DNA of 45,394 bases. Origin: a virus. The stretch lies in the IMG/VR virus record IMGVR_UViG_3300010376_000016, positions 1-45,394 of that record. One strand, written 5' to 3'. Below the pieces are notes generated by a model. The model saw nothing but the letters and a program-made list of their open reading frames with translations. It ran no database searches and had not been told where the DNA came from. Positions 2,711 through 43,481 of the stretch are shown one piece after another. The translations under genes and the position numbers were made by a program. Within the stretch, counting starts at the first letter, position 1. Each line of letters starts with the position of its first letter.

Positions 2711-2712
2711 GT

Positions 2713-2761
2713 GGGGCGCGAAAGCGCCCCCACGGTCAACCAACGACAAGGAGGAACAACG
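2713..2761 (+). repeat. Intercistronic cassette copy F: hairpin GGGGCGC-GAAA-GCGCCCC, CACGGTCAAC box, GACAAGGAGGAAC SD
   Basis: Read directly. Confidence 0.85.
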
Positions 2762-3169
2762 ATGACTCAACTGGACGTCGTCGGCATCGGGGACATCGCC
2801 TCGATGACCGGCGTCAACCGGATCACCATCTCGATGTGGCAGCGGCGTGGGCACTTGCCTCCGCCTGACGCGACACCGTCGTGTGGTCCGGTCTGGTGGC
2901 GCTCGACAATCGAGCGCTGGATGCTGGGCACAGGCCGGACGCGAGTCGGGCGCGTGACCAACGAGACGATCACGCCGAAGGATCTCGCAGCGGAGCTCGG
3001 GATCGACCCGAAACGGTTGCGCGATTGGCTCCGTGCGACCCATCCCCGGGCGCTCGAAGCGAAGCACACGACGTGGGCGATCGACCGCGCGACGGCAGAC
3101 GAAGCCCGCGCGTACTTCGAGCCCGGCGTTCTCGCCGTGCCCGATCAGGCCTGGAGAGCCAGGACATGA
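2762..3169 (+). CDS. MerR/excisionase-type HTH DNA-binding protein (135 aa); candidate excisionase/RDF
   Basis: IGDIASMTGVNRITISMWQRRGHLPPP...VWWRSTIERW resembles the Xis/AlpA-type HTH; ATG follows the SD motif. Confidence 0.6.
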   Translation: MTQLDVVGIGDIASMTGVNRITISMWQRRGHLPPPDATPSCGPVWWRSTIERWMLGTGRTRVGRVTNETITPKDLAAELGIDPKRLRDWLRATHPRALEAKHTTWAIDRATADEARAYFEPGVLAVPDQAWRART

Positions 3170-3378
3170 AGGTCCGCATCGCATACACGACCGAAGTCAG
3201 TGACGACTACCGCCGAGCGATCAACGTGTTCTACGGCCTGCCGGGACTCGCGTCCCGCGACGAGGTGAAGAACTGGCTGCTCAACTACGGCTCGTCGCAA
3301 GACGACGACCTGATGCACGATCTCCAAGAGCACGAACGGCAGGTCCACGACCTGATCGGTGAGCTCGGGAGCGACTGA
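3166..3378 (+). CDS. Hypothetical protein (70 aa)
   Basis: ATGA overlap with upstream stop; last gene of the early-left operon. Confidence 0.6.
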   Translation: MKVRIAYTTEVSDDYRRAINVFYGLPGLASRDEVKNWLLNYGSSQDDDLMHDLQEHERQVHDLIGELGSD

Positions 3379-3401
3379 GTGGGAGGAGGAAATGTGGAGG
3401 C

Positions 3402-4181
3402 TCAGGGCCGGGCGCAGGCTGCGCCCATCTCCAGGTTCGGCACCAGCCCCGAGGGGCCATCCGATTCACCAATCCTACTGCGCTGGCGCTGCTTTCGCAG
3501 CGTCCGCTTGACGTGCTCGCGGGAGAGCCCGAGCCGGGCTGCGATCGCGCCCGGCTTGAAGCCGTCGGCAGCGAGCTCGGCCACGGTCGCGTTCACGCTC
3601 ATTCGCTCGTGCTCCATCAGCCACGGCGGTACCCGGATCACGCGCATCCGAAGCGTGATCGTCACGACACCGAGGTCGAGCTCCAGCTGGTCGAGCTCAT
3701 CGAGGCGGCGCGGCTGCTGCTCGACCAGGACGACCCGGACAAGCGTGTGACGACGGGGCGCGTCGAGCGCGAGCTCGGCTAGCCGCTGGCGCACCTCACG
3801 GTAGCTCCCGCGCCGCTCGTACGCCTCTCTCAGCCGCTCCCACTGGTAGGGCGACTCGTTGGTCGCGTCCGGTGTCCGACGCCGGGGAGCGACCTCGACG
3901 GGCAGCGCGACGGCCTCCTGAACGGGCAGGCCGACGTAGGCGTCCCATTCGAGCTCGCCGTGCTGGCGGCGACGCCAGCCGACGCCGTCGCAGACAAGGC
4001 AGAGGGCGAACTCGCGCCGTCGGCGGATCCAGCCGGTCCGCTTGCACGTCTCGCAGGGGACGTAGCGCGACGCGGCGGGCCCTGACTCTGGCCGCAGCGA
4101 CGTGCGCGGCTGCGGGTATGGGTCGTTCAACGTTTCCAGCAGGAGACGGACCCGCTGGACGCGCTCCACGAGGTCGGACAC
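3402..4181 (-). CDS. Transcriptional regulator (259 aa): two CxxCxGxG zinc-finger motifs plus C-terminal LuxR/sigma-70 region-4-like HTH; candidate immunity repressor or late regulator
   Basis: CETCKRTG and CLVCDGVG motifs; VAELAADGFKPGAIAARLGLSREHVKRTLRK; GTG start after GGGAG; divergent from the Cro-like gene. Confidence 0.6.
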   Translation of the reverse strand: MSDLVERVQRVRLLLETLNDPYPQPRTSLRPESGPAASRYVPCETCKRTGWIRRRREFALCLVCDGVGWRRRQHGELEWDAYVGLPVQEAVALPVEVAPRRRTPDATNESPYQWERLREAYERRGSYREVRQRLAELALDAPRRHTLVRVVLVEQQPRRLDELDQLELDLGVVTITLRMRVIRVPPWLMEHERMSVNATVAELAADGFKPGAIAARLGLSREHVKRTLRKQRQRSRIGESDGPSGLVPNLEMGAACARP

Positions 4182-4290
4182 ACGGCTCCCGTCCGCGCTC
4201 CTCGCGAGCCTTCGGCCGCCGCCACCTCTATCACACGAGCGCCCGCGTCAGGAAGAACTTCGCTTCGAGCAGGGGCTTTGCGGTTCCCGC

Positions 4291-4318
4291 TTGACGTCGT
4301 GGCAAACCGCTTTATCGT
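4291..4318 (+). promoter_or_regulatory. Sigma-70-like promoter candidate TTGACG-16 nt-TATCGT
   Basis: Read in the 380-bp divergent intergenic region. Confidence 0.35.
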
Positions 4319-4394
4319 GTCCCCGTTACATCGCCCAAGGACTCTCCTGGACGAGGGCGTCTGACGGCGCAGGATGGGTGTGGGTCTCTGCGGG

Positions 4395-4450
4395 CCCCGC
4401 CTCCACGCAGGCGGGGAACCCTCCCCCTTGGACCGCGAAAAGGGGAAGGG
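4395..4450. promoter_or_regulatory. Two adjacent GC-rich hairpins (CCCCGCC/GGCGGGG 7 bp; CCCTCCCCCTT/AAGGGGAAGGG 10 of 11 bp)
   Basis: Arms paired by hand. Confidence 0.5.
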
Positions 4451-4473
4451 AAATGCGTTTGCATTTCCTGCCG

Positions 4474-4479
4474 TATAAT
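4474..4479 (+). promoter_or_regulatory. Perfect TATAAT -10 hexamer in an AT-richer island, preceded by the inverted repeat AAATGC-N4-GCATTT (4451-4466)
   Basis: Read directly; no canonical -35 at 16-18 nt. Confidence 0.45.
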
Positions 4480-4484
4480 CGAAG

Positions 4485-4545
4485 TTGCAACACCCTTGCA
4501 GCAGTCTTGCAGCAGATCTGCCTGAGATCTGCCTATCATCTGCCT
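4485..4545 (+). repeat. Operator-like phased repeats: TTGCA(A/G)CA x3 at 4485, 4496, 4507, then ATCTGCCT x3 at 4516, 4527, 4538, each set spaced exactly 11 bp
   Basis: Positions counted from the sequence lines. Confidence 0.8.
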
Positions 4546-4562
4546 ATCGCTTTTCGGCTCGT

Positions 4563-4847
4563 GTGGCGAGGATCAACTCGTTGCGCTTGACTGCTATCCA
4601 CGCGAGCGAGGAGCGGCATGACGGCCGGTTTCACGAGCGAATCCGACGGCTTCGCCTGCAGCAGGGCATGAGCCAGCAGGAGGTCGCTGACGTGACCGAG
4701 ATCAGCGTCAGGACGTACCGGGAGTGGGAGAGCGGCCGGACCGTGCCCTACCCAGGCCCGAACCTGCGCCGGATCGTCGGCCTCTTCCGGGTGACGCCCA
4801 CCTACCTCCTGCGTGGCGACGAGGAGGGGCTCGATGCCTTCGATTGA
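4563..4847 (+). CDS. XRE-family HTH regulator, Cro-like (start uncertain: TTG 4485, GTG 4563 or TTG 4581)
   Basis: RIRRLRLQQGMSQQEVADVTEISVRTYREWESGR is a typical XRE HTH. Confidence 0.8.
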   Translation: MARINSLRLTAIHASEERHDGRFHERIRRLRLQQGMSQQEVADVTEISVRTYREWESGRTVPYPGPNLRRIVGLFRVTPTYLLRGDEEGLDAFD

Positions 4848-5436
4848 CACCCATATCACCAAGGTCGAGAAGGACGAGGCGACCGGCTGGGGCCGGATCT
4901 CGACCGACGACCCGAACGTGAAGACGCTCCAGACGAAACGTCCCGATCTGCTGGCCGAGGCCGGTCAGTTGAGGCTCTCGGGTGTCCTGGTGCGGATCGA
5001 GTACACGGAGCGCGAAGGGAACGTCAACCCGAACACGGGCCGCCCGTACCTGAACCGCTATTACGAGAAGGCAACGGCGCTCGGAGAGCCCCCGCAGGCG
5101 ACCGATAGCGGCGTCGAGACCGTCCGCCAGACCCGGACGCCGACCGACCCGGATGAAGCCTGGCGGATCTCGCTGGCAGCTGGCGGGAAGCTCGCGGTGA
5201 TGACGCTCCCGATGATGCCGACGGCGCAGCGCTCGTTCGAGATCCAGAAGCGGATCGCGCTCGCCTGGGCGGAGTTCTTCTTCTTCACGTCGCGCCCGTC
5301 GCGACCGTCGGTGAACGGAAATCCGACCAGCCCATTTCAAGCCCCCACCGACGCCGGAGCCGAGCATCACAGTCCCGGAGCCTACGACGAGCCCGTCATG
5401 GCTGGCTATACGGGGCCGGATGACATTCCGTTCTAG
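4834..5436 (+). CDS. ssDNA-binding-like or annealing protein with canonical SSB C-terminal tip (…GPDDIPF) (200 aa)
   Basis: Ends in DDIPF; ATG after GAGGAGGGG; sits next to an exonuclease. Confidence 0.55.
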   Translation: MPSIDTHITKVEKDEATGWGRISTDDPNVKTLQTKRPDLLAEAGQLRLSGVLVRIEYTEREGNVNPNTGRPYLNRYYEKATALGEPPQATDSGVETVRQTRTPTDPDEAWRISLAAGGKLAVMTLPMMPTAQRSFEIQKRIALAWAEFFFFTSRPSRPSVNGNPTSPFQAPTDAGAEHHSPGAYDEPVMAGYTGPDDIPF

Positions 5437-5449
5437 ATAACGACAGGAA

Positions 5450-5815
5450 ATGAGCACCGAATCTGTGACAGTCCCTTCGCCCGCCGACACGCCGACGTTC
5501 ACGGCCGACGAGCTCCTTCAGGAGCTCCGCCTGCGCGGGGCCCGCGTCTACCGGATGCGCGAGGTGCTGGTCTTCGCGTTGACGAACGACGCGAAGCTCG
5601 CGGAGTGGCTGGAGGCGCTCGGCGGTCGCCCGTACCTGCCGCGTCACGCCGAGCGACTCTTCATGGACTTGCCGCCCGGCGCGTACCGACGAGCTCGCGG
5701 CGGCTCGGCCGAGTGGGACATCTGGATCCACACGATCCCGGTTCGGGGCGAAGAGACAGTCTGGGAGGCTGCAGGGCGCTGGGCGCGTGAGGTCGAGCCG
5801 ACGGAGTTCGCGTGA
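5450..5815 (+). CDS. Hypothetical protein (121 aa)
   Basis: ORF track; coding-like composition; GTGA overlap with the next gene. Confidence 0.65.
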   Translation: MSTESVTVPSPADTPTFTADELLQELRLRGARVYRMREVLVFALTNDAKLAEWLEALGGRPYLPRHAERLFMDLPPGAYRRARGGSAEWDIWIHTIPVRGEETVWEAAGRWAREVEPTEFA

Positions 5816-6684
5816 CGCTCGACATCAGCGACTACCTCGGCAAGGTCGAGCGACAGGAGGAAGCGCCGCCCGACTGGAACCTGCCGATCGACCACTGGTC
5901 GCCGTCGTCCTTCGCGATGCTGCAACGCTGCCCGCGCCAGTGGCAAGAGCGCTACATCCACGGGCGCAAAGAACGTCCGGCTGAGTCGATCGTCGTCGGC
6001 TCGGCGGTGCACGTCGCCGTCGAGATGAACTTCAAACAGAAGATCGAGAGCCACGCCGACGTCCCGACGGCCGATCTGCTCGACTACTACGAGTCGGCCT
6101 GGCCGGTCGTGATCTCGCAGCAGCAGGAAAACGCGGGCGACGACGTGCTCTGGGACACCGACGCGAACGAGGCGGGCAAGCGCGGCCGTCTGATGCTGGC
6201 CGCCTACCAGAACATCGTCGCGCCGCGCATCCAGCCGCTCGCCGTCGAGACGTTCGTCACCGTCGATGTCGGCTTGCCGATCCCGATCGAGGGACGCTTC
6301 GACGTCGAGCGCGACGCCTCGGTGATCGACCTCAAGTCGGGGAAGCGGGCGCAGCGCAAGCCGAAGGAGGCGTGGCGGATCCAGGGCGTCGTCTACGGCG
6401 AGGCACGAAACAAAGCAGTTGAGTTCCACTCGATCAGCGCGAGCCAGTCATCGAGCAAGGTGACGGTCGTCACGCCACTGGAGTCGGAGCTCCTGCTGAT
6501 CCAGCCCAGTTGGGCGGAGCGCCAGTCGCGTCTGCGCATCCTGCGCGCGCTCTCCGACGAGGCCTGCTTCTACATGGAGCGCTACGGGCCCGACGAGCCG
6601 TGGCCGCCGAAGGGCGTCTACCACGACTGGGCTTGCGACTACTGCGGCTACCGCTCGGACTGCCCAGCCTGGAGAGCGACGTGA
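5812..6684 (+). CDS. Cas4/RecB-family PD-(D/E)XK exonuclease with 4-Cys cluster (290 aa)
   Basis: N-terminal Cys (LQRCPRQW), DxxVIDLKSG nuclease motif, C-terminal CDYCGYRSDC (CX2CX5C). Confidence 0.8.
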   Translation: MTLDISDYLGKVERQEEAPPDWNLPIDHWSPSSFAMLQRCPRQWQERYIHGRKERPAESIVVGSAVHVAVEMNFKQKIESHADVPTADLLDYYESAWPVVISQQQENAGDDVLWDTDANEAGKRGRLMLAAYQNIVAPRIQPLAVETFVTVDVGLPIPIEGRFDVERDASVIDLKSGKRAQRKPKEAWRIQGVVYGEARNKAVEFHSISASQSSSKVTVVTPLESELLLIQPSWAERQSRLRILRALSDEACFYMERYGPDEPWPPKGVYHDWACDYCGYRSDCPAWRAT

Positions 6685-11835: not shown

Positions 11836-11902
11836 GTACGGCCCGACTAGTGCGGCTAGAATGCGATGGTCTAAATCCATCGACCTCACACAAGGAGGAA
11901 CC

Positions 11903-13126
11903 GTGTCTGAGTTCATCCCGCACCCTGACCGTGCGGCCTTCCCGTACCTCAAGCAACGCCGCAACGGCGTCTGGTACATCATCCAGGGGCGCAACGGCCG
12001 CTCACCGCGTCGCGACTCGCTCAAGACGACCGAGATCCGCGAAGCCGAGAAGCGCTACCACCAGCTGGTCGGGCTCGACCCCGGCGCGAACCAGAAGATC
12101 ACCGTCACCAAGGCGTGGGCGCTCTTCATGGCTGACCACTCCGCCAGCGAAGACACCCGTGACCGCTACCAGACCGCCTGGCGGATGGACATCGAGAACG
12201 AGATCGGGCACATGCTGGTCGCCAAGGTGACGCCCGGCGACTTGCAGCGGCTGCTCGACAAGGCTGCCGAGCGCAAGACGAGTCGAGGCACCCTGCTCTC
12301 CGAGAACTCGCGCCGCAACATCGAGGTCGCGCTCTCTGCCTTCTTCACCTGGTGCATCTCAGTCCCGCAGGAGTACCGGCTCGACAGTCCGGTCAAGCGG
12401 CTCGACAAGAAGAAGCGAGCTCGCGTCCGCAAGCGTTCTCACGCCGAGCTCAACCTGTACGTCACGACCGAGGAGATCGACCTGATCGCGGCGGCGGCCG
12501 GAAAGGTCGGACGGAACAACGTCAACGGCCAGATCCTCGCCGTCCAGATGCCGGTGATCGTGCTCCTGCTGCCGCTGCTCGGGCTCCGCATCAGCGAGCT
12601 TCTCGGCCTCCGTGTCAGCGACTGGCACCGCCTGCACGGCGAGCTCGTGGTCGAGCGCCAGCGCGCGCGCAAGGGCTCGGTCAAGGACCCCGGCTCGCTC
12701 GTCAAGGGACTCAAGGGCGAGGCGACCACGATCGGTGACAAGCGGCGCGTCGTCACCCTCTCGCCCTTCGCGTCGAAGACGCTGGCCGCCTACGTCGATC
12801 GCGGCGTCACGGAAGGCTGGCTGCACCACGACGGCTATCTCTTCCCGACCTACAAGGGGACGCCGCGCACCTCGTCATTCGTGATGGCGAAGCTGCGCGA
12901 GGCGGTCAAAGAGGCAGGAATCGGGCGCACGATCACCGCCCACTATTTCCGACACACGCTCGTCTCGGACGCGATCAAGTCGTACACCGATCAGGGCTCG
13001 AACGTGAACTGGACGTTGATCGGTGACACGCTCGGCCACACGCCCGAGGTCGCCCGCAAGATCTACGGGCACGTCGAACGGACCGACGCGATCCGGCGCG
13101 AGCAGGCGCGCTTCGCGGGACGCTAG
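11903..13126 (+). CDS. int: Tyrosine integrase (407 aa)
   Basis: AHYFRHT (HxxR), LGH, KIYGHV catalytic Tyr region; GTG directly after CACACAAGGAGGAACC. Confidence 0.92.
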   Translation: MSEFIPHPDRAAFPYLKQRRNGVWYIIQGRNGRSPRRDSLKTTEIREAEKRYHQLVGLDPGANQKITVTKAWALFMADHSASEDTRDRYQTAWRMDIENEIGHMLVAKVTPGDLQRLLDKAAERKTSRGTLLSENSRRNIEVALSAFFTWCISVPQEYRLDSPVKRLDKKKRARVRKRSHAELNLYVTTEEIDLIAAAAGKVGRNNVNGQILAVQMPVIVLLLPLLGLRISELLGLRVSDWHRLHGELVVERQRARKGSVKDPGSLVKGLKGEATTIGDKRRVVTLSPFASKTLAAYVDRGVTEGWLHHDGYLFPTYKGTPRTSSFVMAKLREAVKEAGIGRTITAHYFRHTLVSDAIKSYTDQGSNVNWTLIGDTLGHTPEVARKIYGHVERTDAIRREQARFAGR

Positions 13127-13232: not shown

Positions 13233-13248
13233 AGCCAGACAGAGCCAA
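13233..13248 (+). repeat. Arm-type site candidate AGCCAGACAGAGCCAA (15 of 16 identical to 13448-13463)
   Basis: Direct repeats flank the tRNA-like core. Confidence 0.5.
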
Positions 13249-13301: not shown

Positions 13302-13340
13302 GGAGGGGTGGCAGAGCGGTCGAATGCGGCGGTCTCGAAA
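13302..13340 (+). other. attP core candidate: 39 nt that read as the 5' half of a tRNA-Ser(CGA), from acceptor stem through anticodon loop
   Basis: GGAGGGG TG GCA GAGCGGTCGAA TGC G GCGGT CTCGAAA; no T arm or 3' acceptor strand follows. Confidence 0.6.
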
Positions 13341-13352
13341 CTCGCAAGGAGG

Positions 13353-13439
13353 CCCTGCAGGGGTGTTGCAAGATCGCGGAAGGGCTTAGGTAAGCCAAAG
13401 GCAGAAAAGCGGCAACGGTGTTGCAGGACTCCTGCAGGC
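13353..13439. repeat. Repeat cluster: palindromes CCCTGCAGGG (13353-13362) and CCTGCAGG (13431-13438) plus GGTGTTGCA(A/G)G at 13362 and 13417 (55 bp apart)
   Basis: Read directly; GGTGTTGCAA is the reverse complement of TTGCAACACC at 4485-4494. Confidence 0.7.
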
Positions 13440-13447
13440 CTGCGCAT

Positions 13448-13463
13448 AGCCAGCCAGAGCCAA
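13448..13463 (+). repeat. Arm-type site candidate AGCCAGCCAGAGCCAA, flanked by GCATAGCC direct repeats
   Basis: Read directly. Confidence 0.5.
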
Positions 13464-13483
13464 CGCATAGCCACCCCGGAACG

Positions 13484-30573: not shown

Positions 30574-30889
30574 CGACCGCCGCCGCCCGCCCCTGCAGCG
30601 CCCGCGTCAGACTCTTCATCCCACCCGCCTGCGTGTCCTTCTGGTTCCCCGCCTGGATCGTCAGGACGAGCTTGAGCGCAGCGGTCGCCGTTGCGCGATC
30701 GCCGTGGTCGTGATCCATCGTGATGAACGCCTGTAGCGCGTCGGTCGCCGCGTCGAGCGCGTCCGTCGAGGTCTTGTAGGTCGGCTCGCCCTGCTCGTTG
30801 TCGGTGTCTCCGAGATCAGGCGGAAGCCCACCGGGGGGCCCGCCGGGGCCGCCGGGCCCGAGCGCGCCCGCGAAGTCCATCATGCTCAT
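30566..30889 (-). CDS. Hypothetical protein between TerL and portal (107 aa)
   Basis: ATGA overlap with the TerL stop. Confidence 0.6.
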   Translation of the reverse strand: MSMMDFAGALGPGGPGGPPGGLPPDLGDTDNEQGEPTYKTSTDALDAATDALQAFITMDHDHGDRATATAALKLVLTIQAGNQKDTQAGGMKSLTRALQGRAAAVGG

Positions 30890-32541
30890 GCGACTCTCCT
30901 TCTCTGCCAGGGGTAAGCGTGGGGACGACGGCGGTGCGCGGGTCTGTGCTGGACGCGCCGCTCGTGACGGCCGTAGAGCCGGTACATCTCAAGCGCGATC
31001 CCGAAGGCAATGACGCGGTCGTCGTTCGCGCCTTCCTGCGCTCGCGGTGAGGGCAGGGTCTTCTGTCGGACGAACGTGCGGAGCTCCATGATCAGGTGGC
31101 GCGGCAGCGCCGGGACGCTGCGCTCGCGGATCGCCTGCTCGATCTGGTTGACCACCTGCGGCCTCGTCTTCGTGTTCATCGGGAAGCCGTAGTTGGCAAG
31201 CATCTGCCCGTCCGGCCGGTCCTGGATCGTGTGCCGGTAGAGCTTCGGGTAGGTCGGGCGGCCCTTGCGTCCGTCGCGCAGCGAGATGATCACGGGCTCG
31301 CCGTAGCCGCCGCCCATCTCGACCGCGAGCCTGGCGTTGCCGTACCAGCGTCCGAGGAAGTGCAGTTGCTCCGCGAACTCGTCCGGGTCGATCTTGCCGT
31401 GGAACTCGGCGGCGAGCGCCATCGTCTGCAGGTCGATGACGTAGGCGGCCGAGTAGTCGAGGCCGCGCCCGGTCGCGACGTCCGCCCCGATTGCGTAGTC
31501 GTGCTCGGGGTTCGGCCGCGCGAAGACGTGAACGTGTCCCCGGTCGTACTTGTGCAGCTTCGACTTGCCCCCGGAGCCGTCGGTCTTGAAGTCGAAGCGG
31601 AAGTCGGCTTCGAGCGCCGCCTGCTCCGAGTACCAAGCGAGCGCCTCCAGGTCGAACCAGCATTCGCCCGTGTTGATGAAGGCGTCCTCGGGGGTGCGCG
31701 GGTACTGCTCGGCCCGGTCGTGCGCCGGAAGCGCCTTGGCGACGTTGGCGTACCAGTGCTCGTCGCGATCGGGATGCAACGACCAGGGCAGGAAAGCAAC
31801 GTCGATCCCGTACGCCTCCCCGTTCACGTACAGGTGGTGGAAGAAGTTGCCCTCGCCGGTCTGCTCGTTCGAGACGCCGTTGGCGGTCGAGACGACGATG
31901 ATCTGGCCGCCGTTGTCGGCGGTCGGGAACATCGCCTTCCAGGAGTCACGGGCGTATTCGTGGCGCGCGTACTCGTCCAGTAGCACGAGCGTCGCTACCT
32001 CGCCGTGACCGGCTCTGCGGGTGGAAGGGAGCCCGACCGCCGAGGAGATGCGCCCGTCCTTGAACGTGAACTCGATCAGTGTGGACGGCCGCGCGCCGCG
32101 TGACGGCTTCGTCACCTCAGCCTCGAAGCAGAGGTGATCGGGGAGCGAGTGGAACATGTCGAACATTCGGTTGACGACTTTGATCGCCTCGTCCTCGTTG
32201 ATCGAGACGATCAGGACGCGCGTCCCCGGCATCGTCAGGAGCTTCCAGAGCGCGTAGCCGACGGCGAGCCAGGTGATCCCCAACTGCCGCGCCTTCAGAA
32301 CGAGGTTTAGCGGGTTGGCCATCCAGTGGTCGATCGTCTCCCGTTGCCAGTACCAGCCCGCGTCGGGGTCGTTCATCGTGAAGGTGAAGCGCTCGCCGGT
32401 CCGCGAGTCCACGCACTCGGCGTGATCGAGCAGCCCAGCTGGGTGCTTCAGCGCGGCGGCTCGTTCGTTCAGCCGTCGCGCGTACTCGATCCAGAACGCC
32501 TCGACCATGTCGAGGTTCGCTTCGACTACTGGCAGGTCCAC
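30886..32541 (-). CDS. terL: Terminase large subunit (551 aa)
   Basis: KARQLGITW (Walker A-like), LVLLDEYA (Walker B), C-terminal nuclease block AIGADVATGRGLDYSAAYVIDL. Confidence 0.9.
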   Translation of the reverse strand: MDLPVVEANLDMVEAFWIEYARRLNERAAALKHPAGLLDHAECVDSRTGERFTFTMNDPDAGWYWQRETIDHWMANPLNLVLKARQLGITWLAVGYALWKLLTMPGTRVLIVSINEDEAIKVVNRMFDMFHSLPDHLCFEAEVTKPSRGARPSTLIEFTFKDGRISSAVGLPSTRRAGHGEVATLVLLDEYARHEYARDSWKAMFPTADNGGQIIVVSTANGVSNEQTGEGNFFHHLYVNGEAYGIDVAFLPWSLHPDRDEHWYANVAKALPAHDRAEQYPRTPEDAFINTGECWFDLEALAWYSEQAALEADFRFDFKTDGSGGKSKLHKYDRGHVHVFARPNPEHDYAIGADVATGRGLDYSAAYVIDLQTMALAAEFHGKIDPDEFAEQLHFLGRWYGNARLAVEMGGGYGEPVIISLRDGRKGRPTYPKLYRHTIQDRPDGQMLANYGFPMNTKTRPQVVNQIEQAIRERSVPALPRHLIMELRTFVRQKTLPSPRAQEGANDDRVIAFGIALEMYRLYGRHERRVQHRPAHRRRPHAYPWQRRRVA

Positions 32542-37917: not shown

Positions 37918-39372
37918 ATGCCTGCAGCACCGACAGGCTCGAAGGAGCTCGACCAGCTGGTCGCCCGCTTCAAGCGCGGCTACGCGCTGGAGAAGACACG
38001 CGGCGGACACTTCCGTGTTCGCAACCCGAAGGGCGAGTTCGTTGAGCTCAACGGGAAGAACCTAACTCTCACCGGGACGGCGCACGGCGGACGGGCGGTC
38101 GCGAACATGACCGCCGAACTGCGAAACGCGGGTGTCCTAAAGGCAACGACGAACGGCAAGGTGACCACCCGGCGCAAGATGGACCGCGCCGTGGTCGAGC
38201 GGCGACAGAAGGCGCAGCGCGAGTCGTTGCGGATCCGCAGCGAGAACCGGCAGAAGGTCGCGGACGAGTTGTACGAACGGCTCGACCAGGCGCTGAAGTC
38301 CGTCGGCGGGATCAACGGCAACGGCGTCCGCGCCGACCTGGCGAACGTCGGGGCACTCGTCGCCCGCCAGTCCGGGCACTCGAACATCACGCCCGACCTG
38401 ACGACCGGCAGCGTCTATCGGCTAACGCAACGGCACTGGGTCGAGCCCCGTTACCAAGAAGTCTGGAGCGAGGTCGCGGAGCGAGTCGAGCAAGCCGACG
38501 ACAAGACCGACGCCTGGTTCGCGCTCGTGCGCGAGGCGCGCGGTCTGCCCGGCGAGGTCGTGCATGTCGGCAAGCCGATCGAGGGAGACTGGCCGTTCGA
38601 GGTCAGGCAACTCGCGATCGAGGCGCTCCTGATCGACCACGAGTACCAGCGGCCTCCCGACTGGCCGTTCATTCGCCGCACCGCCGCCGCCTTCGATGAA
38701 TCGCTGGTCGGGACGATCGACGTCTCCGAGCGTCGGCACGGCGCGATCTTCGCGATCCTCGACGGCCAGCAGCGCTACGAGGCCTGCCGTCTGGTCGGCA
38801 AGAAGACAGTCTGGGCCTCTGTCTACTCCGGGCTCGACCGCGCGAGCGAGGCGCGCTTCTTCCTGCACAAGAACCGCGACAAGAAGGCGATCCATCCCTT
38901 CTACACCTTCCGCGCCCGCCTGGCGGCGCAGGAGCCGGACGCGCTGGCGATCGAGAAGCGGACGGCGAAGCACGGCTACAAGGTGACCGCGCAGGCAGCG
39001 AACGAGCGTTACCCGGAGCAGATCTCCGCGATCGCCGCGCTCGATGAAGCGTTCGGACGCAAGCAGCCCGACGGCAAGGACGCGCTCGACCCGTCGCTGC
39101 AGGCGATGAAGGCCTCGACCTTCGGGATGCGGCACGGGCAGAACCACATCCTGATCCGAGCGCTCGGGATCGTCTTCCAGGAGAAGGGCGACCTGGTCGA
39201 GATGAAACGGATTCAGGACGTGCTGATCAAGACGCCGCCCGAACTGATGCTGCAGAAGGCGCGCGAGGCGGCCCGTTACGCGAGCTCGAACACCGGCTGG
39301 GCGATGGCGCGGATCATCGCCTCCGACTACGACCGGGGGCTGAGCCGGGAGCAGAAGCTCGGCAAGCTATGA
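37918..39372 (+). CDS. Fusion protein: N-terminal HicA-like domain plus ParB/Srx-superfamily domain with DGQQR motif (484 aa)
   Basis: GYALEKTRGGHFRVRNPKGEFV...TGTAHGGRAVANM; IDHEYQRPPDW...AILDGQQRYEAC. Confidence 0.65.
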   Translation: MPAAPTGSKELDQLVARFKRGYALEKTRGGHFRVRNPKGEFVELNGKNLTLTGTAHGGRAVANMTAELRNAGVLKATTNGKVTTRRKMDRAVVERRQKAQRESLRIRSENRQKVADELYERLDQALKSVGGINGNGVRADLANVGALVARQSGHSNITPDLTTGSVYRLTQRHWVEPRYQEVWSEVAERVEQADDKTDAWFALVREARGLPGEVVHVGKPIEGDWPFEVRQLAIEALLIDHEYQRPPDWPFIRRTAAAFDESLVGTIDVSERRHGAIFAILDGQQRYEACRLVGKKTVWASVYSGLDRASEARFFLHKNRDKKAIHPFYTFRARLAAQEPDALAIEKRTAKHGYKVTAQAANERYPEQISAIAALDEAFGRKQPDGKDALDPSLQAMKASTFGMRHGQNHILIRALGIVFQEKGDLVEMKRIQDVLIKTPPELMLQKAREAARYASSNTGWAMARIIASDYDRGLSREQKLGKL

Positions 39373-42305: not shown

Positions 42306-42545
42306 TTACGGCCGCAGATCACCCTGACGCTGGTTCGGGAAGAGCACCGGATCGAGAGCCACGAACTTCACCCGGGCGACGATCCTCGCCGCCAGCGCAT
42401 CCCGTTCCGCCTTCGAGCTCGTCTCCGACTTCGCGTAGCCGAAACGATCCCGGATCTCCTGCTCGCGCTCCTCGTCCAAGACCTCCGCCTGCTCCCGTTG
42501 CCGGTCGCGGTAGGCCTTCTGCTTCTCGGCCGCTGTCAAGGGCAT
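42306..42545 (-). CDS. Hypothetical charged helical protein (79 aa)
   Basis: Internal ATG of ORF 42306..42680; the upstream part is repeat-encoded. Confidence 0.5.
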   Translation of the reverse strand: MPLTAAEKQKAYRDRQREQAEVLDEEREQEIRDRFGYAKSETSSKAERDALAARIVARVKFVALDPVLFPNQRQGDLRP

Positions 42546-42546
42546 A

Positions 42547-42578
42547 GCGTTACCGAACCCCCTCTCTCGCGTTACCGA
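42547..42578. repeat. Direct repeats GCGTTACCGA x2, 22 bp apart, just upstream of the 42545 start
   Basis: Read directly. Confidence 0.7.
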
Positions 42579-42584
42579 GCCTGG

Positions 42585-42612
42585 CCCCCAAGCCCCAGGG
42601 CCCCAGGGCCCC
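42585..42612 (-). other. G-quadruplex motif on the minus strand: GGGG CCCT GGGG CCCT GGGG CTT GGGGG
   Basis: Four G tracts of 4 or more with 3-4 nt loops. Confidence 0.6.
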
Positions 42613-42770
42613 AGGCTCGCCGGAAGTGGGGCTGGCAAGCGGATCCTGCCGTCTTTCGCGCGCGCGCGGGGGTGGGCCACCCTCCGGGCCCGGGCCCGAG
42701 CTCGGCCGCTCCAGCTGGCCGCGAGCTCCGCCGCTCAAATACGGCGGTCTCAGGGATCGCTGCAGGCTCG

Positions 42771-43481
42771 CTAGCCCTGTATTGATGCGGGATCTAGGGA
42801 GGGTGGCTCTGGCTGGCTCTGGCCCTCCAGCAGGCTTGCCGCGAGCTCCTGCATCGCCTGCCACGACATGGATCCGAGCTCCTCAGCCGAGCTCGGGAGC
42901 TCCACGCTGATCGACGCAGAGCTCGGCGGATAGAGGAGCTCCAGAGCCCGCAAGGCCGCTTGTTGCCTAGCGATTGTGCCGAGCTCGTCGTCGTCTAGCG
43001 GCGCGTCCACGATCGCAGCCGCGAAGTCTTCCGCGCGAATCTGCGCAGCGACGCGCGCCGCTTGCAGGGGGCTTGCCGCTCGTCTGGCGCTGATGCCCAA
43101 CGTTGCGCGAGCTCTAGCGCGGGCTCTCTTCTGCTCGTGGCCCTGCTTCGAGAAGCGTCCAGGATCCCGAGCTATGCCCGTTCCAGCATGCCCAGCGCAG
43201 AGCCCGCCGAACCTGTGCGAGCGTGTCCCCCTGCAGCGCGAGCCGTCTGGCTTGATGACTCGACAGCGTCCATCGTCTGGCCCCTCGAATAACTCATACG
43301 TGTCAGGCAGGGTGTAACTTTGTGTTTCACTCTGTGACTCGTCGGGCACGACTGCCGACGCTGAACCTTGAAAACCGAGCGTCACGAGCTCCGCCGAGCG
43401 GTCTCCCTCCGTGGGACGGTTAGACCCGTCCGCGTGTTGGCCCTCATTGGCTGCGAGCTCCTGCCGCTCGGTTTCGCGCAC
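42771..43481 (-). CDS. Hypothetical protein (236 aa) with Cys/His motif RCRVIKPDGSRCRGTRSHRFGGLCAGHAG; weak candidate for small terminase or DNA-binding protein
   Basis: ORF track; GTG after GGAGGAGG. Confidence 0.6.
   Translation of the reverse strand: MRETERQELAANEGQHADGSNRPTEGDRSAELVTLGFQGSASAVVPDESQSETQSYTLPDTYELFEGPDDGRCRVIKPDGSRCRGTRSHRFGGLCAGHAGTGIARDPGRFSKQGHEQKRARARARATLGISARRAASPLQAARVAAQIRAEDFAAAIVDAPLDDDELGTIARQQAALRALELLYPPSSASISVELPSSAEELGSMSWQAMQELAASLLEGQSQPEPPSLDPASIQG

Follow-up and report, generated by a model that had tools for sequence, protein, structure and literature searches.

Proteins that act as excisionase and switch regulator in one are known mainly from the P2-like coliphages. 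The cox boxes of phage P2 are repeats at helical periodicity. Cox protein has been described as forming oligomeric filaments on DNA (PMC3936717, PMC5009727), and for the Apl protein of phage 186, which is encoded by the first early gene, seven operators at the pR-pL switch and five at the attachment site attP have been described as direct repeats spaced by 10-11 bp, of which at least three adjacent copies are needed for binding (PMC7498355; PMC3936717). Here we describe a 45,394-nt stretch of viral DNA (IMG/VR record IMGVR_UViG_3300010376_000016, positions 1 to 45,394, hereafter the window) in which six 11-bp direct repeats lie in the switch region, between a leftward regulator gene and a small XRE-family gene, and in which units of the same kind recur at attP. 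Because these units recur beside the integration site, early transcription and prophage excision are probably under the control of a single small protein of this phage.

Direct repeats are also bound by Streptomyces BldC, a small protein of the MerR/excisionase fold which oligomerizes on them and acts as a repressor, and the C repressor of P2 is a small Cro/CI-type helix-turn-helix (HTH) protein. The MerR-like gp36 of D29 and L5 forms oligomers on GC-rich direct repeats and represses transcription (PMC12266134), and operators of P2-type C repressors have been described as two direct repeats whose sequence and spacing vary among heteroimmune phages (PMC1904268).

The window has a GC content of 66% and the appearance of a complete temperate phage genome, and DNA and protein searches of GenBank phages (n = 50,697) returned nothing resembling it. 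The initial annotation had listed, in the gap between the regulator and XRE genes, a promoter-like pair of hexamers, two hairpins, an inverted repeat, a TATAAT and two sets of three 8-mers phased at 11 bp, and each of these motifs was recovered at its position. The 8-mer TTGCA(A/G)CA starts at 4485, 4496 and 4507 and ATCTGCCT starts at 4516, 4527 and 4538. Anchored on the core YTGCM, both sets fall into a single register with units at 4485, 4496, 4507, 4518, 4529 and 4540 (in order TTGCAACACCC, TTGCAGCAGTC, TTGCAGCAGAT, CTGCCTGAGAT, CTGCCTATCAT and CTGCCTATCGC), three of them TTGCAGCAG-like and three CTGCCTAT-like, which confirmed the phasing of all six repeats. TTGCARCA was counted seven times in the window compared with 1.08 expected, a number reached in 0 of 100 shuffles, and ATCTGCCT four times compared with 0.96 expected, while the expectation for three phased YTGCM cores was 0.00 per shuffled window. 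The switch array is not a product of chance. Across 4450-4549 the GC content dips locally to 0.49 (0.66 window-wide).

The second array, which had not been part of the initial annotation, lies on the opposite strand at attP. Read from 13437 down to 13350 its slots are CTGCAGGAGTC, CTGCAACACCG, TTGCCGCTTTT, CTGCCTTTGGC, TTACCTAAGCC, CTTCCGCGATC, TTGCAACACCC and CTGCAGGGCCT, of which TTGCAACACCC is identical to the first switch unit and is found in the window only at 4485 and at 13361-13371. A pattern scan of the window for YTGCM-N6-YTGCM-N6-YTGCM returned only the switch and 13400-13437 on the minus strand. When a weight matrix of the switch units was used to scan the 45 kb for phased runs, attP was the sole other site, with a score of 29.0 compared with 9.7 for the next best match and a shuffle maximum of 12.0; apart from the two arrays, single 8-mers of the unit type are scattered through the window at near chance level. 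The sharing was replicated in a related metagenomic phage locus, L104 (L-numbers denote such loci), where TTCGYG-N5-TTCGYG is found only at its own switch and beside the tRNA-Ser core (three occurrences, 0.04 expected). In both phages the attP array is positioned between the core and the arm-type repeats, where the sites of a recombination directionality factor (RDF) are usually located.

The attP core was matched exactly in more than 120 metagenome-assembled genomes, nearly all of them from Thermoleophilia (Gaiellaceae, Miltoncostaeaceae), and ARAGORN called tRNA-Ser(CGA) at the matching genome sites. These core matches suggest that the host clade is the Thermoleophilia. No tRNA was detected by scans of the window itself and of the first related loci. 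The integrases of L104 and L105 adjoin the same tRNA-Ser core and are 29-31% identical to the window integrase (L104, 29%); an integrase-profile scan of IMG/VR returned distant integrases only. The sequence of L105 ends inside the attP core, and those of L227 and L228 end before int. Sets of AGCCA repeats lie on either side of the core and enclose the attP array. The pattern AGCCA-N5/6-AGCCA has four matches in the window, three of them in attP, compared with 0.12 expected, and analogous sets of two and three repeats are found in both attP arms of L104, L226, L102 and L103. A 15-mer which forms one putative arm-type pair, AGCCAGCCAGAGCCA, is present identically at 13448-13462 (+) and 42804-42818 (-), and the distant copy, inside or beside the open reading frame (ORF) at 42771-43481, could be an additional integrase-binding or regulatory site. 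Inspection of the ORFs near int revealed no excisionase-type gene beside the window integrase; the HTH_17 Xis proteins encoded beside int in L102 and L103 had no tblastn match in the window, and the genes near the L104 int had no HTH_17 match.

The recurrence of the units at attP places the element with the excisionase/switch operators of the Apl/Cox class. On these comparisons we consider it probable that one small phage protein acts at both the switch and attP arrays. The six switch units would be its operators. Monomers would bind cooperatively in head-to-tail order, one to each turn of the helix and all on the same DNA face, which is how RDFs bind. At the switch the protein would cover the DNA from the early promoter region to the beginning of the operon, and would throttle transcription of the rightward operon from the XRE gene to int, presumably at the early promoter. 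At attP or attR it would bend the arm and direct excision.

As in 186, the operators proposed here are short direct repeats (approximately 6 bp of core) 10-11 bp apart, and a switch array (seven in 186, six in the window) is accompanied by an attP array (five in 186, six in eight slots in the window) of similar sequence and arrangement. Binding by Apl/Cox proteins calls for at least three adjacent direct repeats one helical turn apart, and the window has six at 11 bp; the similar arrays at switch and attP are a further common property, which L104 shares. The two systems differ in geometry: in the window the promoters are back-to-back, the genes are divergent, and the array follows the rightward promoter and immediately precedes the gene, whereas the 186 array lies between face-to-face lytic and lysogenic promoters 40-60 bp apart, and the window integrase ends the rightward block rather than belonging to a lysogenic operon. 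Gene order and promoter geometry likewise differ from those of P2, as do the two interleaved unit subtypes of the window phage and several relatives. Unlike 186 and P2, the window phage is known from sequence alone, its host appears to be an uncultured Thermoleophilia actinobacterium, and the candidate protein has an HTH_3 fold. No match to the Cox family at E <= 0.01 was obtained when ten window proteins were searched against Pfam, and the XRE product matched HTH_3 and related families only. The system thus appears to work in an Apl/Cox-like manner while standing outside their protein families. The initial annotation had set these direct repeats apart from the palindromic operators of lambda-type switches. 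That distinction stands, but the repeats are not without precedent, since the Apl/Cox class uses direct-repeat switch operators.

For comparison we gathered approximately 75 distinct related switch regions, in which the conserved gene order is a leftward regulator, a gap, usually an XRE gene and then a protein with a tail like that of single-stranded DNA-binding protein (SSB). Arrays in the relatives are always 10-50 bp upstream of the XRE gene and their unit sequences are phage-specific, for example CCAATCGCTGT (11 bp, seven units) in L002, TTCGGACATGA (11 bp, eight units) in L095, GCCCAGCTAG and AAGTCCGAGG (both 10 bp, six units) in L014 and L033, GTCACGATCA (11 bp, four units) in L101, and two 11-bp subtypes with three and two units in L077. 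At periods of 10, 11 or 20-22 bp, 28 of 61 loci (approximately 46%) scored above the 99.5% threshold set by their own shuffles, compared with 0-4 of the 61 at any other period, and many of the remaining loci were judged by eye to have degenerate phased repeats. Spacings between exact 7-mer repeats in 75 loci peaked only at 10, 11, 20-22, 30 and 33 bp (100 pairs at 10 bp and 141 at 11 bp, shuffles approximately 5), and segments of strong self-similarity had periods of 10, 11, 20-22 and 30 bp only, with one exception at 24 bp. Since the periods are limited to the helical repeat of DNA, a protein binding on one face of the duplex is indicated, and an RNA motif or replication slippage is argued against. 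The earlier suggestion of cooperative binding to direct repeats along one DNA face therefore still appears sound, the arrays of the relatives occupying the same position with periods of 10-11 bp and their multiples.

The closest relative, L099, has the same motif in the same place with six units in a different subtype order, and L234 has the same unit motif in four units. Unit number and phase are thus kept while individual units turn over, since L099 has the same count in a different order. Phages which have no XRE gene (L003/L016 and L017) have no array. An extra gene lies between the regulator and the array in some relatives (L234:2132-2737 (+), L101:2598-2825 (+)). The L234 gene, which encodes a PAS-domain/HTH protein and runs in the same direction as the regulator gene, hints that the switch of this phage responds to a signal.

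As binder of the arrays we are somewhat inclined to prefer the XRE product, which has a Pfam HTH_3 match (E = 3e-11), matches to PHROG transcriptional regulator/repressor families, and DdrO and P22 C2 as nearest solved structures. Conservation at the protein level between the window and L099 starts at the position of its start codon, 4563. The recognition helix of the window XRE protein, ISVRTYREWESG, is identical in L099 and L234, both of which have the window unit motif (TTGCAGCAG/CTGCCTAT) with MerR-like domains 78% and 48% identical to that of the window (taken as 100%). In L101 and L104 the helix is different and the units are unrelated, with MerR-like domains of 54% and 55% identity. In this small sample, sequence comparison favours the XRE protein. 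The use of non-palindromic operators by an XRE-type protein has precedent, because the C repressor of P2 reads direct repeats, although the P2 operators are two half-sites approximately two turns apart with no copy at attP, and the arrays of the window group are contiguous runs of four to eight sites at one-turn spacing. A more tentative proposal, which we would put at somewhat below an even chance, is that this Cro/CI-type HTH_3 protein is itself the RDF, bound head to tail on up to eight repeats in its own leader and in the attP arm; with the same reserve, it would then be an XRE-fold analogue of Apl/Cox in phages of uncultured Thermoleophilia. The two interleaved unit subtypes might in that case reflect alternating binding modes, or a mixed filament with a second protein.

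Both arrays might instead be bound by the MerR/excisionase-like product of 2711-3169, polymerizing head to tail on the repeats after the manner of L5/D29 gp36, BldC and lambda Xis, with the XRE protein binding elsewhere, for example at the palindrome at 4449-4468. The fold thus has precedent in all three, D29 Gp36 of the MerR family binding GC-rich direct repeats and repressing genes (PMC12266134). The window product matches Pfam MerR_1 (E = 1.4e-7) and PHROG 66 'excisionase and transcriptional regulator' (E = 1.2e-10), with a weak match to the BldC-family model (16 bits, cut-off 77), and it is the sole excisionase-fold gene found in a phage with no Xis beside int. Every related locus with sufficient flanking sequence carries a homologue; because the gene is universal, its presence or absence cannot discriminate between the candidates. 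We consider this protein an unlikely binder, as in this small sample the unit motif tends to track the XRE recognition helix and not the MerR-like protein: L234 shares the window motif at 48% domain identity with most recognition-helix positions changed, while L101 and L104 at 54-55% have unrelated units. In addition, XRE-less phages retain the MerR-like gene with no switch array, and relatives having an int-adjacent Xis also carry it. Binding of the repeats by the 259-aa zinc-ribbon/HTH regulator, as an immunity repressor which would cover the beginning of the early operon and thereby set immunity specificity, is more doubtful still. Its gene is the divergent, lone leftward gene beside the gap, and immunity determinants are expected to have fast-diverging operators. 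The C-terminal HTH of this protein, however, hardly varies among phages whose units are unrelated (LSREHVKRTLRK in the window phage and LSREAVKRTLRR in L101, for instance, where the arrays differ), which makes it an improbable reader of the array; the gene is also present in XRE-less, array-less loci, repressor sites inside attP have no obvious rationale, and a conserved AT-rich palindrome of the family is a better fit to a conserved HTH.

Readings in which the units are not operators of a switch protein appear less probable again. An origin of replication, with iterons bound by a phage initiator beside an AT-rich melting patch, would account for helically spaced direct repeats, the GC dip to 0.49 and the recombination/replication-type genes downstream (the SSB-like tail and the PD-(D/E)XK nuclease). 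Typical iterons are 17-22 bp, however, compared with contiguous units of 10-11 bp here, the array is not confined to a single locus and the GC content falls only to 0.49. A scan of 24 window ORFs, which covered the early ORFs only in part, recognised no initiator, helicase or primase, and a second array between attP core and arm sites in two phages would be unexplained, so that we regard an origin as very improbable. Slightly less credible is that the units are arm-type sites for the N-terminal domain of the integrase, an extra set at the switch allowing Int to regulate early transcription. One array is in attP, and the units resemble the arm-type sites of integrases of the lambda family, which are short direct repeats spaced by approximately 10 bp. 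A different repeat, (G/T)AGCCA, however, occupies both attP arms in the typical arrangement of two and three copies, as in related attPs, whereas YTGCM units are in one arm only, adjoining the core, and the switch arrays of L102, L103 and L233 match nothing in their own attP. Least credible of all is that the repeats have no role in protein binding and arose by recent slippage, or that they are an RNA motif reiterated in the 5' leader of the XRE transcript. Transcription from the 4291-4318 promoter would probably place the units in a 5' leader, and slippage can make tandem repeats, but helical-repeat periods in dozens of independent phages would be meaningless for RNA or slippage, the window phage and L099 keep unit number and phase while the order changes, a second array is found on the opposite strand at attP, and an Rfam scan of 3300-5500 (E <= 1) returned zero matches.

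Several observations weigh against a single XRE protein acting at both sites. The sharing of units between switch and attP was found in only two phages: L102, L103 and L233, each with an int-adjacent HTH_17 Xis, have switch arrays whose units are absent from attP. In L226, compared on the attP side only, the tRNA core is shared and has no obvious array beside it. Since the array adjoins the XRE gene, their co-variation could reflect linkage and not recognition, and the association of array period (10 or 11 bp) with XRE subfamily was not significant (p = 0.12; for MerR-like subfamily p = 0.46). XRE/Cro-type HTH proteins are usually palindrome-binding dimers, and the MerR/excisionase fold, which the window also encodes, is that of the known RDFs and of the actinobacterial direct-repeat binders L5/D29 gp36 and BldC. 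Finally, the promoters of the window are back-to-back and approximately 170 bp upstream of the array, compared with face-to-face around the array in P2 and 186.

If one protein does act at both sites, the logic of the P2-like coliphages would be found in an unrelated lineage of soil Thermoleophilia phages known only from metagenomes, and the protein fold would probably be a different one. The family would provide dozens of natural specificity variants, with 10- or 11-bp units paired with differing recognition helices, which could be used to study how new specificities evolve in cooperative one-face DNA binders. For annotation, a phased array before the first early gene together with a copy beside the attP core would point to the RDF and its sites in phages with no annotated Xis.

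Table 1. Positions of the arrays, neighbouring elements and genes in the 45,394-nt window.
Feature	Position	Strand	Remarks
MerR/excisionase-like DNA-binding protein	2711-3169	+	domain at residues 18-82; rival candidate binder
Zinc-ribbon/HTH regulator, 259 aa	3402-4181	-	lone gene on the minus strand here; candidate maintenance repressor
Sigma-70-like rightward promoter (putative), TTGACG-16-TATCGT	4291-4318	+	sole promoter-like match in 3300-5000, 0.1 expected
Two stacked GC-rich hairpins in leader	4392-4450	+	arms 4395-4402/4409-4416 and 4419-4429/4440-4450
Perfect inverted repeat GGAAATGC-N4-GCATTTCC	4449-4468	.	8-bp arms
TATAAT hexamer	4474-4479	+	5 bp upstream of first repeat; possible -10, not conserved
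Switch array	4485-4550	+	six 11-bp direct-repeat units, single register, core YTGCM, two subtypes
XRE-family (HTH_3) protein, 94 aa	4563-4847	+	first gene of rightward early operon
PD-(D/E)XK nuclease	5812-6684		early rightward block
Tyrosine integrase	11861-13126	+	PHROG integrase, E = 6e-42; last gene of rightward block
Putative integrase arm-type sites, (G/T)AGCCA	13233-13247 / 13448-13473	+	two copies / three copies
attP core homology	13302-13340	+	39-nt match; 5' half of tRNA-Ser(CGA) to anticodon loop
attP array	13350-13437	-	eight 11-bp slots, one register, six matching YTGCM
Large terminase	30886-32541		window gene

Among the other elements of the gap, the promoter-like pair TTGACG-16-TATCGT was borne out by comparison. 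Of 77 related gaps, 21 had the pattern TTGmnn-N16-18-TAnnnT (shuffles, 3), in most cases at a distance of 85-160 nt from where the regulator gene starts, and the pair at 4291-4318 is, on this comparative support, the element which appears to be conserved as promoter. The TATAAT ahead of the array, which had been offered as a -10 element, is unique in the window, yet at least one copy was present in 29% of shuffles, so that the hexamer alone is not significant. Its place is taken by TTGATC in L099 and by TATACC in L234, the closest two of the relatives which retain the window units. An AT-rich hexamer ahead of the arrays was more frequent than in control windows (64% compared with 13%, p = 6.5e-8), while TAnnnT was not enriched ahead of the arrays of the family. 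We therefore dropped the idea of a conserved -10 at this position, although the hexamer itself is present. A sigma-54 promoter in the AT-rich element was rejected by inspection, as the spacing did not fit.

The two stacked hairpins of the initial annotation are present as well, but they recur only in L099. Inverted repeats were found at 4395-4416, 4419-4450 and 4449-4468, and the RNA is predicted to fold into three stacked hairpins (z = -2.85). L099 retains the hairpins using different stem sequences (z = -2.4), folding of the L101 and L024 leaders did not surpass that of shuffles, and covariation by RNAalifold was weak (-0.88 kcal/mol). A reading as structured RNA was dropped because of the shuffle-like folding in L101 and L024 and the weak covariation. 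The hairpins could be an attenuator or terminator between promoter and array, or protein-binding palindromes; a scan for intrinsic terminators found none. The motif GGGGnACCCTC, which includes the anti-Shine-Dalgarno-like CCCTCC, is invariant in the leaders of four relatives (window 4409-4425, L099, L101 and L024) while its surroundings diverge.

The inverted repeat following the hairpins was confirmed and proved longer than the 4451-4466 first assigned to it (Table 1). It is the positional counterpart of an AT-rich near-palindrome found across the family, GAAAAAnCCCGCAAATAGCGAnTTTTTC, of approximately 28 bp, which at least 20 switch gaps contain in one orientation or the other (for example L029:~53, L032:~342 and L003:~206, in reverse-complemented upstream coordinates), including those of XRE-less phages and of phages with unrelated arrays. 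At the same place L234 has a palindrome with 13-bp arms containing GGAAAT/ATTTCC. A dimeric protein might use the window palindrome as its operator, and the AT-rich palindrome of the family is a candidate operator of the conserved 259-aa regulator, which it would fit better than the array does, or else a promoter element. The regulator has an N-terminal helix, a CxxC...CxxC zinc ribbon, a helical domain and a C-terminal HTH with a weak HTH_23 match at residues 198-232. At least 148 homologues were found, all metagenomic and many on contigs of 44-50 kb, with the cysteines and the HTH invariant in the alignment; a search of GTDB genomes returned no match. An AlphaFold2 model (pLDDT 78.8) searched with Foldseek against the PDB gave nothing below E = 0.4, the weak top matches being sigma factors and LuxR/NarL-type HTH domains.

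Comparison with other control regions gave further differences. As in lambda, a short control region is bounded by divergent regulator genes and the early operon opens with a small Cro-like XRE gene, but in place of palindromic operators over divergent promoters the window has six direct repeats in one register, downstream of a promoter and recurring at attP, and the palindrome at 4449-4468 is separate and unrepeated. The stoperators of Cluster A mycobacteriophages are many asymmetric repressor sites, scattered over the genome in the orientation of transcription, whereas the units here are at two loci only. A type II partition centromere (parC/ParR) has 10-11 bp direct repeats on both sides of the promoter of adjoining parM/parR genes; the genes downstream of the window array are instead those for the XRE protein, the SSB-tailed protein and the nuclease, and the only ParB-like gene of the window is 33 kb from the array. 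This gene, at 37918-39372 (+), encodes a 484-aa ParB-like/DUF6551 protein in an integrating phage and has a homologue in L233.

The rightward block begins with the XRE gene, followed by the SSB-tailed protein and the nuclease, and is closed by the integrase. The SSB-tailed protein (4813-5436 (+), 207 aa, C-terminus ...GPDDIPF) follows the XRE gene in nearly all relatives and had no match in Pfam, PHROG, NCBIfam or GenBank phages. Its DDIPF ending is the acidic C-terminal tail motif of bacterial SSB, and the product may be a novel SSB-like or SSB-mimicking protein forming a recombination module with the nuclease. A perfect tandem repeat of GCCCCAGG (three copies, period 8) was also observed at 42592-42615, near the 3' part of the minus-strand ORF 42306-42680.

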